A stretch of 64,000 nucleotides of DNA from positions 708-64,707 of the forward strand of contig JAGQNT010000188.1 of NCBI GenBank assembly GCA_020427965.1, read 5' to 3'. Under the pieces are notes generated by a model. That model had not been told where the DNA came from. It worked only from the letters and a program-made list of their open reading frames with translations, and made no database searches. The position numbers were made by a program, and so were the translations under genes. This DNA is from Candidatus Saccharimonadota bacterium (GTDB taxonomy: Bacteria > Patescibacteriota > Saccharimonadia > Saccharimonadales > UBA4665). How positions within the stretch are numbered: the first letter of the stretch is position 1; each line of letters opens with the position of its first letter. Below are positions 12,588 to 57,170 of this stretch, piece after piece.

Positions 12588-12774
12588 GATTATCAGAATA
12601 AATGCGGCCGCTAGTATGCAAAACCAACGGTAGGTCGATAGTTTGGTGATAACGTATTCCTCCCTTTCTGCCAGTATACATCCCAGTGCGTCTACGAGGT
12701 GTGAGATATTTAGCTGTGTTAAGCGTCTGGTGACTCGTTTGACCTTGCTTTTTGTGTTTTGGACGCTTATGCTT

Positions 12775-12796
12775 GTTACGTAGCATGTTACGTAAC
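12775..12796 (+). promoter_or_regulatory. 22-bp tandem palindrome GTTACGTAGC-AT-GTTACGTAAC (copy 1)
   Basis: Lies 15 nt upstream of the AbrB-like ATG. An exact reverse-complement copy is at 35289-35310. Confidence 0.5.
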
Positions 12797-12811
12797 AAAT
12801 AAGGAGTTAAA

Positions 12812-13516: not shown

Positions 13517-13548
13517 GAGAACTATTGTAGCACTGTCATCGTTATTGC

Positions 13549-13652
13549 GGAGGGACTCAACCTTGCCTTCGGCAACCCGGCTCCCATGGTCGCCGGGCTT
13601 CGGGCGGCTGAGTGCCACTGGCACTCGCGTTCGAATCCTAGCTGCAGAGCCA
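13549..13652 (+). ncRNA. GC-rich structured RNA candidate with a tRNA-like 3' end
   Basis: Hairpins TTGCC-TTC-GGCAA, CCCGGC...GCCGGG and GAGTGCC-ACT-GGCACTC, then GTTCGAATCC...GCCA, followed directly by a terminator. No complete cloverleaf could be drawn. Confidence 0.3.
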
Positions 13653-13687
13653 CGAAAAAACCGGACATTAAGTCCGGCTTTTTCGTG
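13651..13687. terminator. Bidirectional intrinsic terminator
   Basis: CACGAAAAAACCGGAC-ATTAA-GTCCGGCTTTTTCGTG: a hairpin with A-run and T-run flanks, between the convergent RNA candidate and tRNA-Gln. Confidence 0.7.
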
Positions 13688-13760
13688 GCTGGGACGGAGG
13701 GATTCGAACCCCCGAATGCCGGGACCAAAACCCGGTGCCTTACCACTTGGCGACGTCCCA
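13686..13760 (-). tRNA. tRNA-Gln (anticodon UUG), CCA encoded
   Basis: Hand-folded cloverleaf: TGGGACG/CGTCCCA acceptor, anticodon loop TTTTGGT, T-arm GGGGG-TTCGAAT-CCCTC, then G-CCA. Confidence 0.9.
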
Positions 13761-30270: not shown

Positions 30271-30410
30271 TTGGATATATCTCCAATTTGGTTACTTAAA
30301 ACGGTTATCGACCTCTAGTTGAACCGTTATGTTGCCGTAAAAAATACGCCTTTGGCAAAGACGCATAAAACATTCATAAGAATTGTTTTACCTCGGCGAC
30401 TGATTAAGGA

Positions 30411-30431
30411 CTTATATAATTAATTATATAA
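30411..30431. repeat. AT-rich palindrome CTTATATAATTAATTATATAA (copy 1)
   Basis: 20-bp perfect palindrome (30412-30431), about 140 nt upstream of rplJ. The same 21-mer recurs at 57146-57166. Confidence 0.8.
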
Positions 30432-35121: not shown

Positions 35122-35288
35122 TAGTTGTTAACCCTCCAAACTAGCTATATTTTCGCAACTATTTGCCGTAAGCGCAAATGTAAAAAGTACATTGGTTTTT
35201 GGCTTGTCGAATTGGCAGTTATGTCAACCGCTTGGTTGCCACGAAATGACAAATGTAAAAATTTCGCTTTGCATTTAACAGAGGCCGT

Positions 35289-35310
35289 GTTACGTAACAT
35301 GCTACGTAAC
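35289..35310 (-). promoter_or_regulatory. 22-bp tandem palindrome (copy 2)
   Basis: Exact reverse complement of 12775-12796, so it has the same orientation relative to the downstream gene. It lies 167 nt upstream of the dcd ATG. Confidence 0.5.
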
Positions 35311-35334
35311 ACGACCTCCTCGATGTGCTATGTC

Positions 35335-43378: not shown

Positions 43379-43467
43379 ATTGCTTGCATTCTATCACGCT
43401 AATGGCAAAACGGGGTTAGCTGCACAGTCGTAACCAAACCGTATACTACACTGCTTCGAGAGTTAGG

Positions 43468-43498
43468 CCCGTCCTAGGGCCTGTACGTGCGTCACAGG
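43468..43498. repeat. 31-nt GC-rich intergenic repeat (copy 1)
   Basis: CCCGTCCTAGGGCCTGTACGTGCGTCACAGG matches 53163-53193 at 29 of 31 positions. Confidence 0.8.
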
Positions 43499-43524
43499 CC
43501 CCATTTGACATGGTTGACCGAGGG

Positions 43525-44247: not shown

Positions 44248-44910
44248 TTAGCGTATTACGATGTTGCGCCGCGTCATGTCGACACGACCAGAAGCTGGGT
44301 TGGGTACAAGATTAACGAGTCCGGGTTTTACGGCTTTGCTGTTGGCGTCACCACTCCCCAACATACCCAGTTCGCGCATACGGCGGGCCAGTGCTGAAAA
44401 TTGAGTGTTAAAGGTGTGTTTACCGCTAACAACCACAAAATCTTCATTTGGCTTCGGGTTTTGCATATGACCCACAAGGTCGTCAAAAGTCGCCCGGTCC
44501 ATTGCGGGCGAATACTTGTCGTCAGCACGGCGTCGATCTCGCTTGATGCTACGTGCGAATGAGCTCTCTAGGTCAACCTGGAACCAAACAACAACCGGAA
44601 CGGCATGGCAACGTCGCGCCAGCTCGCGCAGCTCTAAGCGCTGACGGGCACGCATTGAGTTGATGTCATACACCACACTCAGGCCGGCTTCCAGGAAAGA
44701 TTCGGTCATATACATCATTAGCTGGTTTACGACGTTATTTTCCTCTTTGTCGTAGCGAGGTTGCTCAAATAACTCAGCGCGAATGCGGTCGCCCTGGACA
44801 TGGGCTGCCTGGACACCTTCAGCAAATTGACGAGCAAAGTACGTCTTACCCGAACCAGGGTAGCCATACAACATAATCAGTGCCGGTTTGGTTGTGGCGA
44901 TTTTAGCCAT
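44248..44910 (-). CDS. P-loop kinase (AAA_33/zeta-toxin-like or polynucleotide-kinase-like)
   Basis: Walker A LYGYPGSGKTYFA, small-kinase size and layout. Substrate unknown. Confidence 0.65.
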   Translation of the reverse strand: MAKIATTKPALIMLYGYPGSGKTYFARQFAEGVQAAHVQGDRIRAELFEQPRYDKEENNVVNQLMMYMTESFLEAGLSVVYDINSMRARQRLELRELARRCHAVPVVVWFQVDLESSFARSIKRDRRRADDKYSPAMDRATFDDLVGHMQNPKPNEDFVVVSGKHTFNTQFSALARRMRELGMLGSGDANSKAVKPGLVNLVPNPASGRVDMTRRNIVIR

Positions 44911-45008
44911 ATTCTATCCATGTATAGCAGATTTCTCTCTGATTGAAAAGGGGAAACAGATGACAGATGTATCATTTTCGATTATCATAAAGCAGTCTTT
45001 GCCTTCGT

Positions 45009-45157
45009 AGGGGAGTAGCTCAGTTGGTAGAGCACCGGTCTCCAAAACCGGGTGTCGCAGGTGAGAACTGCCTGTGGCAGTTCGCAAGGGAGACCACTCT
45101 TGCAAACTGGTTTGCAAAGATGTGGCGACGGGGTCGCGGAACGTGACCAAGTCCTGC
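45009..45157 (+). pseudogene. tRNA-Trp(CCA)-like gene with an 85-nt insertion in the T-loop; no matching 3' acceptor strand
   Basis: The first 54 nt differ from the tRNA-Trp at 45191 at one position. The insert (45063-45147) follows the first T of the T-loop (T54). CAAGT-CCTGC then closes the T-stem, and the next 7 nt (CAGATTT) cannot pair with AGGGGAG. Confidence 0.55.
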
Positions 45158-45190
45158 CAGATTTGAACCTTTTCAGTAAAATTCTGTAGT

Positions 45191-45266
45191 AGGGGAGTAG
45201 ATCAGTTGGTAGAGCACCGGTCTCCAAAACCGGGTGTCGCAGGTTCAAGTCCTGTCTCCCCTGCCA
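45191..45266 (+). tRNA. tRNA-Trp (anticodon CCA), CCA encoded
   Basis: Hand-folded: AGGGGAG/CTCCCCT acceptor, anticodon loop CTCCAAA, T-arm GCAGG-TTCAAGT-CCTGT. Confidence 0.95.
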
Positions 45267-51627: not shown

Positions 51628-51951
51628 TTAAGACGGAATGAGTTCGACGGCATCTTGCAACAGCCGATAGTGTCGATGGACGTGCTCATGAGCACTCAGC
51701 ACTTCGCCGACTATACTTCTTGGTGGCCGTGACGCATCACCTATTACAAGCCAATCAAATTCTATGACCGGTGGCACGGTCTGCATCAGATGATCTATCG
51801 CATCATAAACGTCTTGCGTGCCCAGGGTTTCTTGGCCTCGTTGCTGTAACCCGCGTAGTATTTCGAAGCCCGTAAACCATCCATCACGCTCAGGTGGTAC
51901 GGTGCGGTTCTCGGTCAGGAAATCTTGAACAAGGTGTGTTGTCTCTGTCAT
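51628..51951 (-). CDS. Hypothetical 107-aa protein
   Basis: Start set at MTETTHLVQDF, because the longer track ORF runs through the RNA element upstream. Confidence 0.45.
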   Translation of the reverse strand: MTETTHLVQDFLTENRTVPPERDGWFTGFEILRGLQQRGQETLGTQDVYDAIDHLMQTVPPVIEFDWLVIGDASRPPRSIVGEVLSAHEHVHRHYRLLQDAVELIPS

Positions 51952-51993
51952 GGTGATACTATACAACAGGTTTGATGGAAAGCAATGATTTAT

Positions 51994-52140
51994 GTTGGGG
52001 AGAGGGATTCGACCTGCGTTCCGCAGGCCCGAAACTTCACGATGACAAGCACAGCTTGTCTCGGAAGATTTCCTTGCGAATTGCCACAGGCAATTCTCAC
52101 CCCGAAGGCTTTCCATCGAGTGTGCGAAGCTTTCTCTACC
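51994..52140 (-). ncRNA. tRNA-Tyr-like T-arm fragment carrying an 86-nt insertion, homologous to the one in the tRNA-Trp copy
   Basis: Minus-sense ...AGCCTTCGGGG-T-[86 nt, 52098-52013]-TCGAAT-CCCTC-TCCCC. The flanks match the 3' part of tRNA-Tyr (11 plus 15 nt). The first 27 nt of the insert match the Trp insert apart from a compensatory pair. Confidence 0.4.
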
Positions 52141-52149
52141 AATCTAAAA

Positions 52150-52170
52150 AGCCACCTTACGGTGGCATCT
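52150..52170 (-). terminator. Terminator-like hairpin after tRNA-Tyr
   Basis: Minus-strand GCCACC-GTAA-GGTGGC followed by TTTTT. Confidence 0.55.
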
Positions 52171-52175
52171 TAGAT

Positions 52176-52260
52176 TGGTGCAGGGAGAGGGATTCGAACC
52201 CCCGAAGGCTGAGCCAGATGATTTACAGTCACCCGTGTTTGACCGCTTCACTATCCCTGC
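52176..52260 (-). tRNA. tRNA-Tyr (anticodon GUA), long variable arm, CCA encoded
   Basis: Hand-folded: GCAGGGA/TCCCTGC acceptor, anticodon loop CTGTAAA, variable arm GGC-TCA-GCC, T-arm GGGGG-TTCGAAT-CCCTC. Confidence 0.9.
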
Positions 52261-53107: not shown

Positions 53108-53162
53108 GCGAGCATAAGTATAACAGTTTGAAGTAGTATTGCATACTGCTTCTGGGGTAAAA

Positions 53163-53193
53163 CCCGTCCTAGGGCCTGTAGATGCGTCACAGG
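53163..53193. repeat. 31-nt GC-rich intergenic repeat (copy 2)
   Basis: CCCGTCCTAGGGCCTGTAGATGCGTCACAGG, between the holB stop and the TPR gene start. Confidence 0.8.
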
Positions 53194-53207
53194 GGCACTT
53201 TGGAGGC

Positions 53208-57142: not shown

Positions 57143-57170
57143 CGACTTATATAATTAATTATATAAGTCG
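57143..57170. repeat. 28-bp perfect AT-rich palindrome (copy 2)
   Basis: CGACTTATATAATT|AATTATATAAGTCG. It shares a 21-mer with 30411-30431 and lies about 85 nt upstream of the 57061 start. Confidence 0.85.

Follow-up and report, generated by a model that had tools for sequence, protein, structure and literature searches.

A stretch of 64,000 nucleotides (nt) from Candidatus Saccharimonadota bacterium (contig JAGQNT010000188.1, positions 708 to 64,707; hereafter the window) contains a tRNA-Trp sequence that is interrupted, immediately after the first base of its T-loop (T54), by a structured module of 85 nt. The module belongs to an undescribed, Saccharibacteria-specific RNA family, the members of which share a fold of three helices, lie in fragments of tRNA genes and are usually accompanied by a complete copy of the tRNA. 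The fold reads as being under selection. We interpret the module as a non-autonomous, GU-targeting, intron-like mobile element that is kept as a folded RNA, an interpretation for and against which we see the case as evenly balanced. Movement through an RNA intermediate is speculative.

Comparison within the window revealed that 45007-45062 and 45189-45244 form a repeat of 98% identity. As an earlier note on this DNA had claimed, 45009-45062 reproduces the first 54 nt of the tRNA-Trp located downstream (45191-45266), which is called as a complete gene by both ARAGORN and Rfam. The sole difference between tRNA positions 1-54 of the two copies lies at position 11, which is C in the fragment (45018) and A in the complete gene (45200), where it produces an A11.G24 mismatch in the D-stem. 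Over the interrupted copy, Rfam reports only a truncated tRNA (33.7 bits, 45014-45073), and both the 3' acceptor strand and the CCA are missing. The 85-nt block after T54 (45063-45147) is present as described and is followed by CAAGTCCTGC. This sequence had been said to restore the T-loop; it does supply the remainder of the loop, but T55 is missing, and the T-loop is not exactly restored. The 12 nt that follow (45158-45169) show no pairing with the 5' acceptor strand, as had been stated for the first 7 of them; they represent T-arm positions 64-52 in antisense and are complementary to the uninterrupted T-arm across the insertion point.

The three helices, called P1, P2 and P3, were imposed on an alignment (A2) of 82 distinct rows. 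P1 has the form GAAnnGCC-UGU-GGCnnUUC. P2 is an 18-pair hairpin with one bulge, sometimes tandem G.A pairs and a conserved apical C-U-N-G. P3 consists of 7 pairs, the outermost of which joins the third G of a conserved CGGG to the first T-loop base past the insert. Of the cells, 95.5% are paired, compared with 74.8% in shuffles and 25-44% in slid controls. Changes on both sides are found in 25 of the 33 pairs, with 529 cells so changed versus 155 in shuffles, and the covariation score is 0.53 versus 0.16 in shuffles. The three-helix fold is a conserved structure. The three hairpins previously drawn by eye are all present and covary in 82 distinct homologues, although hairpin 2 is longer than drawn (45089-45129, with one bulge) and hairpin 3 (45132-45148) has a seventh pair that had been missed, formed with the first T-loop base after the insert. 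The view that the structure is conserved, and that the insert is no plain decay scar, is likewise supported, as covariation of this strength rules out the reading as a decaying scar.

Copies in other genomes were searched for in contigs of one genome per species using the pattern GAGAA-N4-CTGTG-N4-TTCGCAAGG, which has 19 specified bases. The pattern matched 114 stretches, with approximately 4 expected by chance; four matches are chance ones, which feature mismatched stems, have no preceding G-T and occur in other phyla. On either side of the P1 loop, the pattern left four positions free and did not require them to be complementary, yet they are so in 110 of the 114 matches. The apical C-U-N-G of P2 and the CGGG junction are also conserved though absent from the pattern. 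By this search the true copies number approximately 117, in approximately 84 assemblies. A covariance-model search had been proposed in the earlier note. The model, R1, was built from 83 short-type copies and found, within the fetched loci, approximately 25 extra copies outside the pattern. The family therefore totals at least 140 copies, and the expectation of further homologues is amply borne out. The variants that escape the pattern have an AGU loop in P1, a GGAAAC junction in place of GCAAGG, or compensated substitutions among the P1 bases specified by the pattern. Three or four copies are present in some 8-kb loci. A long subtype (22 copies) features a different P2 and an extended, AU-rich P3.

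Nearly all carriers are labelled Saccharibacteria, Saccharimonadales or Patescibacteria. Copies were also found in metagenome-assembled genomes labelled otherwise, at loci L001 (Calothrix), L046, L055, L101 (Limnocylindria) and L095 (Binatia); one such genome bears copies on contigs of 106-149 kb, and the tRNA contexts are of the Saccharibacteria type. These copies suggest mis-binned or mislabelled assemblies rather than real presence outside Saccharibacteria. A scan of a viral contig collection with a 27-mer gave no match. Rfam 15 has no family over the insert, either at the gathering score across the whole window or at E values up to 10 for both copies in the window, and reports only a tRNA, through the 5' fragment. 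We found no published description of the module in the openly searchable full-text literature, subscription-only papers being outside that search.

G-T immediately precedes 115 of the 117 copies. Most copies sit between T54 and T55 of a T-loop. Others are found in the D-loop of tRNA-Glu, -Gln and -Leu fragments, in the anticodon loop of tRNA-Pro(GGG) and in the variable loop of tRNA-Val. Some are nested after CGGGU within P3 of other copies (L053, L080, L111, L060 and L070), tandem copies within one T-loop also occur, and subfamilies with different P2 and P3 helices use the same site. The notion of a T-loop-targeting mobile element, raised in the earlier note, thus holds as far as the targeting of tRNA loops and the folded RNA are concerned, but is too narrow, as D-, anticodon- and variable-loop sites and nested sites are used as well. 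In almost all cases, the tRNA copy that hosts the module is truncated. Copies adjoin almost any tRNA, with no fixed partner, and an intact tRNA on the same strand is located near 93 of the 117, either ending 64-94 nt upstream or starting approximately 122-135 nt downstream (approximately 172-204 nt for long or D-loop copies).

Fragment, insert and complete gene are arranged in two main ways. In layout A (34 copies, including the one at the tRNA-Trp locus), a promoter is followed by tRNA positions 1-54, the insert, the T-loop remainder, an antisense T-arm ending in GAACC, a TATAAT-like box and the complete tRNA; the antisense piece and the box after it are present in most of these loci. In layout B (57 copies, including the one beside tRNA-Tyr in the window), the complete tRNA comes first and is followed by its terminator, an antisense 3' third starting with TGGT, a tiny loop, the sense variable region and T-stem, the insert, the sense 3' part and sometimes a duplicated terminator. 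Antisense pieces mirror the tRNA sequence of their own locus, as seen in L037 with its rare GATC T-loop, and run across the insertion point without containing the insert. Homology to the complete gene in layout A begins at tRNA +1; in L112, 54 of 54 positions are identical and homology upstream extends over 0 nt. There is no target-site duplication at the junctions. Instead, the interrupted copy is one base short of the native sequence, having lost either one G of a G-run (23 copies) or T55 (36 copies).

The second insert that had been reported 7 kb away is real. It lies on the minus strand, scores approximately 111 bits with R1 and spans, with its flanks, 52141-51993. Its host, however, is no whole tRNA but the 3' third of a tRNA-Tyr together with its antisense, the 5' two-thirds being absent. 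The antisense and sense pieces at 52099-52141 form a hairpin immediately 5' of the module. A 27-mer common to the inserts of copies 1 (tRNA-Trp) and 2 (tRNA-Tyr) has 2 matches, compared with 0 expected, and the two inserts differ in hairpins 2 and 3 through compensatory changes. Copy 2 is located behind the terminator of the Thr-Tyr operon, so that its transcription would need read-through. An open reading frame (ORF) of approximately 108 residues, which has no Pfam match (51628-51952, minus strand), starts approximately 40 nt downstream of copy 2; a mechanically called ORF of 162 residues (51628-52116) overlaps the module and is probably over-extended.

A divergent third member is found beside tRNA-Gln, in a region (13540-13647) that has no Rfam family match. 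Its parts are ordered as terminator, antisense T-arm/acceptor, GAGUGCC-AGU-GGCACUC, further hairpins, CGGG, UUGCC-GAA-GGCAA and an uninterrupted sense T-arm, GGUUGAGUCCCUCC. The module of this member sits between the antisense and the sense pieces, outside the T-loop. The features of the three loci are listed in Table 1.

Table 1. Features of the three module-bearing loci, in coordinates of the window.
Feature	Position	Strand	Basis
Promoter-like site ATGACA-17-TATCAT, upstream of the interrupted tRNA-Trp copy	44960-44988	+	consensus scan
tRNA-Trp 5' fragment, positions 1-54, ending GGT (G52 G53 T54), ancestral C11	45009-45062	+	
Copy 1: structured 85-nt module, inserted after T54	45063-45147	+	R1, 110 bits
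Layout of copy 1: GA; P1 45065-45083; GCAAG 45084-45088; P2 45089-45129; GG 45130-45131; P3 45132-45148		+	
T-loop remainder and 3' T-stem strand, CAAGTCCTGC; T55 missing, C45148 closes P3	45148-45157	+	
Antisense copy of T-arm positions 64-52, CAGATTTGAACC	45158-45169	+	
Promoter-like site (-10 TAAAAT) for the complete tRNA-Trp	45154-45182	+	consensus scan
Complete tRNA-Trp(CCA), derived A11	45191-45266	+	
Complete tRNA-Tyr (52260-52176) and terminator (52166-52151), upstream of copy 2	52151-52260	-	
Antisense tRNA-Tyr 3' third (TGGT start, decayed), short loop, sense variable arm and T-stem 5' strand ending GGGGT	52099-52141	-	
Copy 2: 86-nt module between T54 and T55 of the tRNA-Tyr 3' fragment	52013-52098	-	R1, 111.5 bits
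Sense tRNA-Tyr 3' fragment, TCGAATCCCTCTCCCCAACA, acceptor end decayed	51993-52012	-	
Divergent third member beside tRNA-Gln (13686-13760)	13540-13647	-	partial R1 matches in right order; fold z = -5.7
Third member: antisense T-arm/acceptor	13647-13627	-	
Third member: P1-like hairpin	13626-13610	-	
Third member: middle part	13609-13576	-	
Third member: P3-like hairpin	13575-13563	-	
Third member: sense T-arm fragment	13562-13540	-	

The kinase gene adjoining the tRNA-Trp locus (44248-44910) has homologues throughout Saccharibacteria. Eight syntenic loci, which show 65-83% kinase identity and the gene order kinase, YgjP-like, histidine kinase, were compared with the window. All eight have a tRNA-Trp 88-191 nt from the kinase start, uninterrupted and preceded by the same promoter block (ACAGATGACA ... 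TATGAT or TATTAT), and the module is absent from the tRNA-Trp site in all eight. The window exceeds these relatives by 182 bases, which correspond to the insert (85), the T-loop remainder (10), the antisense piece (12), a spacer (21) and a second tRNA 1-54. C11 is also found in the tRNA-Trp of six of the eight relatives, the remaining two having a different D-arm, and the fragment at 45009-45062 is identical over these bases to the tRNA-Trp of L115, L116, L118 and L121. As C11 is shared by the relatives and the fragment, the sole complete tRNA-Trp gene in the window bears a derived, weaker D-stem. To judge from the shared block, the site at 44960-44988 is probably the ancestral tRNA-Trp promoter, now driving the interrupted copy.

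A filled tRNA-Trp site with the same gene order was found in a more distant relative (L042), in which the kinase is 51% identical, YgjP 35% and the histidine kinase 62%. The module of L042 has a different P2 sequence and the same fold, and retention as far as this relative shows long-standing maintenance of the fold. The patchy distribution of filled and empty sites reflects either repeated gain at one site or many losses. At two empty sites (L116 and L119), a structured leader of approximately 190 nt is found between the promoter and tRNA-Trp. It holds GGTGAGAAAA...TCTCAC, superficially like the 5' end of the module (GGTGAGAA), has no R1 match and may be either an unrelated leader RNA or a remote relative of the module.

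The P1-P3 stems contain 131 G.U and 18 A.C cells overall. We downgraded this excess as proof of RNA, since it rests on two conserved positions, columns 90-99 and 86-103, which supply 105 of the G.U cells; at columns 90-99, in P3, the G.U pair is conserved in 68 of the 82 copies. Better evidence for RNA is the asymmetry of the flanking helix. In 37 loci, pairing between the antisense piece and the 5' exon yields a hairpin with 32 G.U versus 2 A.C. The 3'-exon side of these loci was used as an internal control for mutation bias and has 53 G.U versus 62 A.C. The asymmetry indicates that at least the helix abutting the module is constrained as RNA on the given strand. We infer that selection acts on the RNA. 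A compact multi-hairpin RNA is predicted to form from the module together with the tRNA piece and the local antisense piece.

As a mobile element, the module would insert directly after G-U, typically GGU, in hairpin loops of tRNA sequences, and would rely either on trans-acting factors or on its own RNA. ORF clustering across 110 loci of 8 kb each revealed no recurrent protein family near the copies, the commonest occurring in 11 of the 110. The tRNA-Trp locus represents the filled state, with the module between T54 and T55 of a former ancestral tRNA-Trp gene. The event would have left the ancestral promoter and tRNA 1-54 upstream, and the T-loop remainder, the 12-nt antisense T-arm copy and a second complete tRNA-Trp with its own -10 box downstream. 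An RNA route would involve insertion into exposed loops of tRNA transcripts, copying back to DNA and recombination beside the gene. Movement of this kind would explain partial duplications that start exactly at tRNA +1. The route is favoured by the four tRNA sites, all of which are loops exposed in folded tRNA, by duplication from the mature or primary 5' end and by co-orientation with the tRNA. The sense-antisense-sense layout, in turn, is the product expected from a copying enzyme that snaps back and switches templates. CdiA-CT E479, a Burkholderia contact-dependent inhibition toxin, cleaves tRNAs between T54 and Psi55, precisely at the main insertion point; such cleavage makes an RNA-level route that combines a nuclease and a ligase chemically conceivable. 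That the family represents a new class of bacterial mobile RNA, inserting after G-U by its own chemistry or by a trans-acting nuclease and ligase, copied back and recombined beside its parent gene, is a proposal we make tentatively and consider rather unlikely.

Several models of the junctions were rejected. Fold-back primed from the T-stem was discarded as a source of the antisense piece, because the stretch copied would comprise positions 48 and lower rather than 64-52. The P-nucleotide (hairpin-opening) model as stated does not account for an antisense piece that lacks the insert. Simple target-site duplication and a shared core dinucleotide both conflict with the constant loss of one base. 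Duplicated 3' parts that end at the transcript end are not supported either, their ends being inconsistent.

A number of observations weigh against the interpretation as a mobile element. It offers no worked-out mechanism for the sense-antisense-sense layout or for the constant one-base loss. The duplicated 3' part in layout B ends variously, at the CCA, inside the acceptor strand or beyond the terminator, and consequently the argument from transcript boundaries holds for the 5' side only. The nested insertion site lies in a stem. Copies of one assembly (e.g., L007, L040 and L060, or the two copies in the window) differ throughout P2 and P3 and thus show no sign of a recent burst. Beyond the two conserved G.U positions, the stems show 26 G.U versus 18 A.C, a ratio close to that of DNA hairpins or of recent neutral change and hence undiscriminating. 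Transcription, from the old tRNA promoter in copy 1 or by tRNA read-through in copy 2, is inferred. No partner emerged, whether reverse transcriptase, transposase, ligase or endonuclease. Retention at the same locus over deep divergence, finally, is explained by a host function no less well than by a selfish element.

The family may instead consist of host genes for a tRNA-linked small RNA, involved for instance in tRNA processing or regulation or acting as a decoy for T-arm binders, with mobility a matter of history and inheritance now vertical. We regard this as possible, though on balance unlikely. A tRNA-Trp locus that is filled, with the fold kept, in a relative at 35-62% protein identity is what such a gene would show, and the strong covariation, the 32:2 asymmetry of the flanking hairpin, the conserved C-U-N-G and CGGG motifs and the promoter-like site of copy 1 are all in keeping with it, as is the general rule that very small genomes seldom retain junk. 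The distribution, however, is patchy, with eight closer relatives empty at the tRNA-Trp locus, and the nesting, the tandems and the several subfamilies per site resemble insertion events. Moreover, copies lie beside almost any tRNA, and no function can be named.

Transposition at the DNA level offers another explanation. The module could be a miniature single-stranded DNA transposon of the IS200/IS605 type, in which the hairpins are signals for a Y1 transposase acting in trans and insertion takes place 3' of GGT where tRNA genes fold. Insertion of the module is indeed strand-specific, 3' of a fixed G-T and free of target duplication; each end has a hairpin close by, the GGGT motif of existing copies itself serves as a target, and the element contains no gene. 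G.U and A.C cells are of similar number in P1-P3 outside the two conserved positions, and, by analogy with IS608, a conserved G.T mismatch could be something that a protein recognizes. Nevertheless, we consider this explanation improbable. Near-identical copies within a genome, a mark of such elements, are not found, the within-genome copies being divergent, and no Y1 transposase was seen among the ORFs of the 110 loci or near both window copies. It also leaves unexplained the partial sense and antisense tRNA duplications with their start at +1, the long covarying internal helix P2 and the RNA-type asymmetry of the flanking hairpin.

The module is not an intron of a working tRNA in the usual sense. 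The earlier note had listed a small intron among its options, and a true intron or self-splicing ribozyme would be excised to give a functional tRNA-Trp. The U before the 5' junction, which is shared with group I introns and corresponds to the G-T before 115 of the 117 copies, and the conserved fold are compatible with this idea. Removal of the insert was simulated with approximately 63,000 deletion variants analysed by ARAGORN. A tRNA was called at the insert's own length in only one of the 117 copies, L009, which features a nearly full-length interrupted tRNA-Leu and an intact tRNA-Leu 128 nt downstream. In the other 116, a call required a deletion long enough to join the fragment to the complete gene beside it. 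The tRNA-Trp copy has no 3' acceptor strand or CCA, copy 2 is without the 5' two-thirds of its tRNA, one target base is missing, and a complete gene is adjacent in 93 of the 117 copies. Group I and group II introns gave no Rfam match at the thresholds stated above (Intron_gpI for group I), and the models of small self-cleaving ribozymes (hammerhead, twister, twister-sister, pistol, hatchet, hepatitis delta virus-like and hairpin) had no match at E values up to 10 in both copies. At 85 nt, the module is too short for the P3-P9 core of group I introns and far under the core size of either group, and its 5' G-U/GAGAA resembles the GUGYG of group II introns only superficially. Excision to a functional tRNA is thus very improbable.

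An inert remnant, whether a decaying tRNA pseudogene or an att-site fragment of an integrase-borne element, is scarcely credible: although integrative elements typically leave tRNA fragments beside tRNA genes (PMC9897764), there is no integrase or cargo, housekeeping genes lie between and around the copies, the layout recurs at many different tRNAs, and the covariation and size of a family of more than 140 homologous inserts refute it. The att-site model in particular was rejected, because no fragment bounds an integrase-bearing element, the insert lies inside a repeated block and the putative element is only approximately 180 nt long.

According to a Pfam scan, the genes around both window copies are housekeeping genes only. 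The 7 kb between them encode enzymes of glycogen metabolism (glycosyltransferase, GH57 and GH15) and no integrase. A 67-nt direct repeat (76% identity) is found at 43441-43507, 1.5 kb upstream of the tRNA-Trp locus, and at 53136-53202, approximately 1 kb beyond the tRNA-Tyr locus. Both copies are intergenic and contain GGCCC...GGGCC and CCTGT...ACAGG hairpins; the first has no Rfam match. The window also contains perfect repeat pairs of 23-24 nt, at 12774-12797 and 35288-35311 and at 30409-30431 and 57144-57169. The two copies of TGTTACGTAGCATGTTACGTAACA are inverted relative to each other, and GACTTATATAATTAATTATATAA is a palindrome with two copies, one of them in the L10 leader region; these sequences have the look of operators or promoters.

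Although the genomes of Saccharibacteria rank among the smallest in bacteria, the precisely folded module is maintained at several copies per genome. The arrangement of sense fragment, insert, antisense splint and intact gene is produced by no known intron, transposon or integrase mechanism. If the module moves as RNA, the family would represent a novel type of mobile element and a natural instance of RNA insertion into tRNA loops, without precedent in Bacteria as an intron-like, retro-mobile element of this specificity. As a host RNA, the module would be an abundant but unrecognized participant in tRNA biology, in a major uncultured lineage. For annotation, the loci are a source of false tRNA pseudogene calls, and they could provide lineage markers.

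Among known systems, archaeal bulge-helix-bulge introns, including the transposing introns of Thermoproteales, resemble the module in being short inserts in the T, D, anticodon and variable regions of tRNAs, and the related copies of the transposing introns at different positions and in different tRNAs likewise hint at movement. Archaeal introns, however, reside in functional, otherwise complete genes and are cut by EndA at the bulge-helix-bulge, whereas the hosts of the module are truncated fragments with a complete gene alongside. In the covariation-supported fold, the junctions lie at the foot of P1 and P3, which seems to differ from the canonical bulge-helix-bulge motif. The G-U junction rule, the three helices, the conserved junction sequences and the bacterial hosts further set the module apart. 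Bacterial group I introns also interrupt tRNAs, have a U before the 5' junction and are structured RNAs. They are, however, at least approximately 200 nt long and located in the anticodon loop, while the module is 85 nt long, sits mostly in the T-loop, has no P3-P9 core, follows no terminal G rule and lies in an incomplete tRNA.

The palindrome-associated miniature elements of the IS200/IS605 type are similarly non-autonomous, have hairpins near their ends and insert strand-specifically and without duplication 3' of a short motif into hairpin-forming DNA. In contrast to these, the module features a conserved G.U, a flanking helix with a 32:2 ratio, a long internal covarying helix and sense and antisense tRNA duplications. 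The intervening sequences of 23S rRNA and the Rickettsia palindromic elements are also small structured inserts of patchy distribution, found in loops of stable RNAs or in frame within genes; unlike the module, they reside in a functional gene, are tolerated or cut by RNase III, consist of one long hairpin and have no antisense copy of the target. Eukaryotic tRNA-derived short interspersed elements share with the module a tRNA-derived 5' part that starts at +1 and is fused to an unrelated body, and a duplication bounded by the end of a transcript is a hint of an RNA intermediate. Those elements are genome-wide, use the machinery of long interspersed elements and have poly(A) or other 3' tails, whereas copies of the module stay beside the parent tRNA, with no linked reverse transcriptase identified. 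Should the DNA-transposon explanation be true, the module would fall within a known kind. It fails a defining feature of each of the compared systems tested, and we rate it as lying outside the known kinds.

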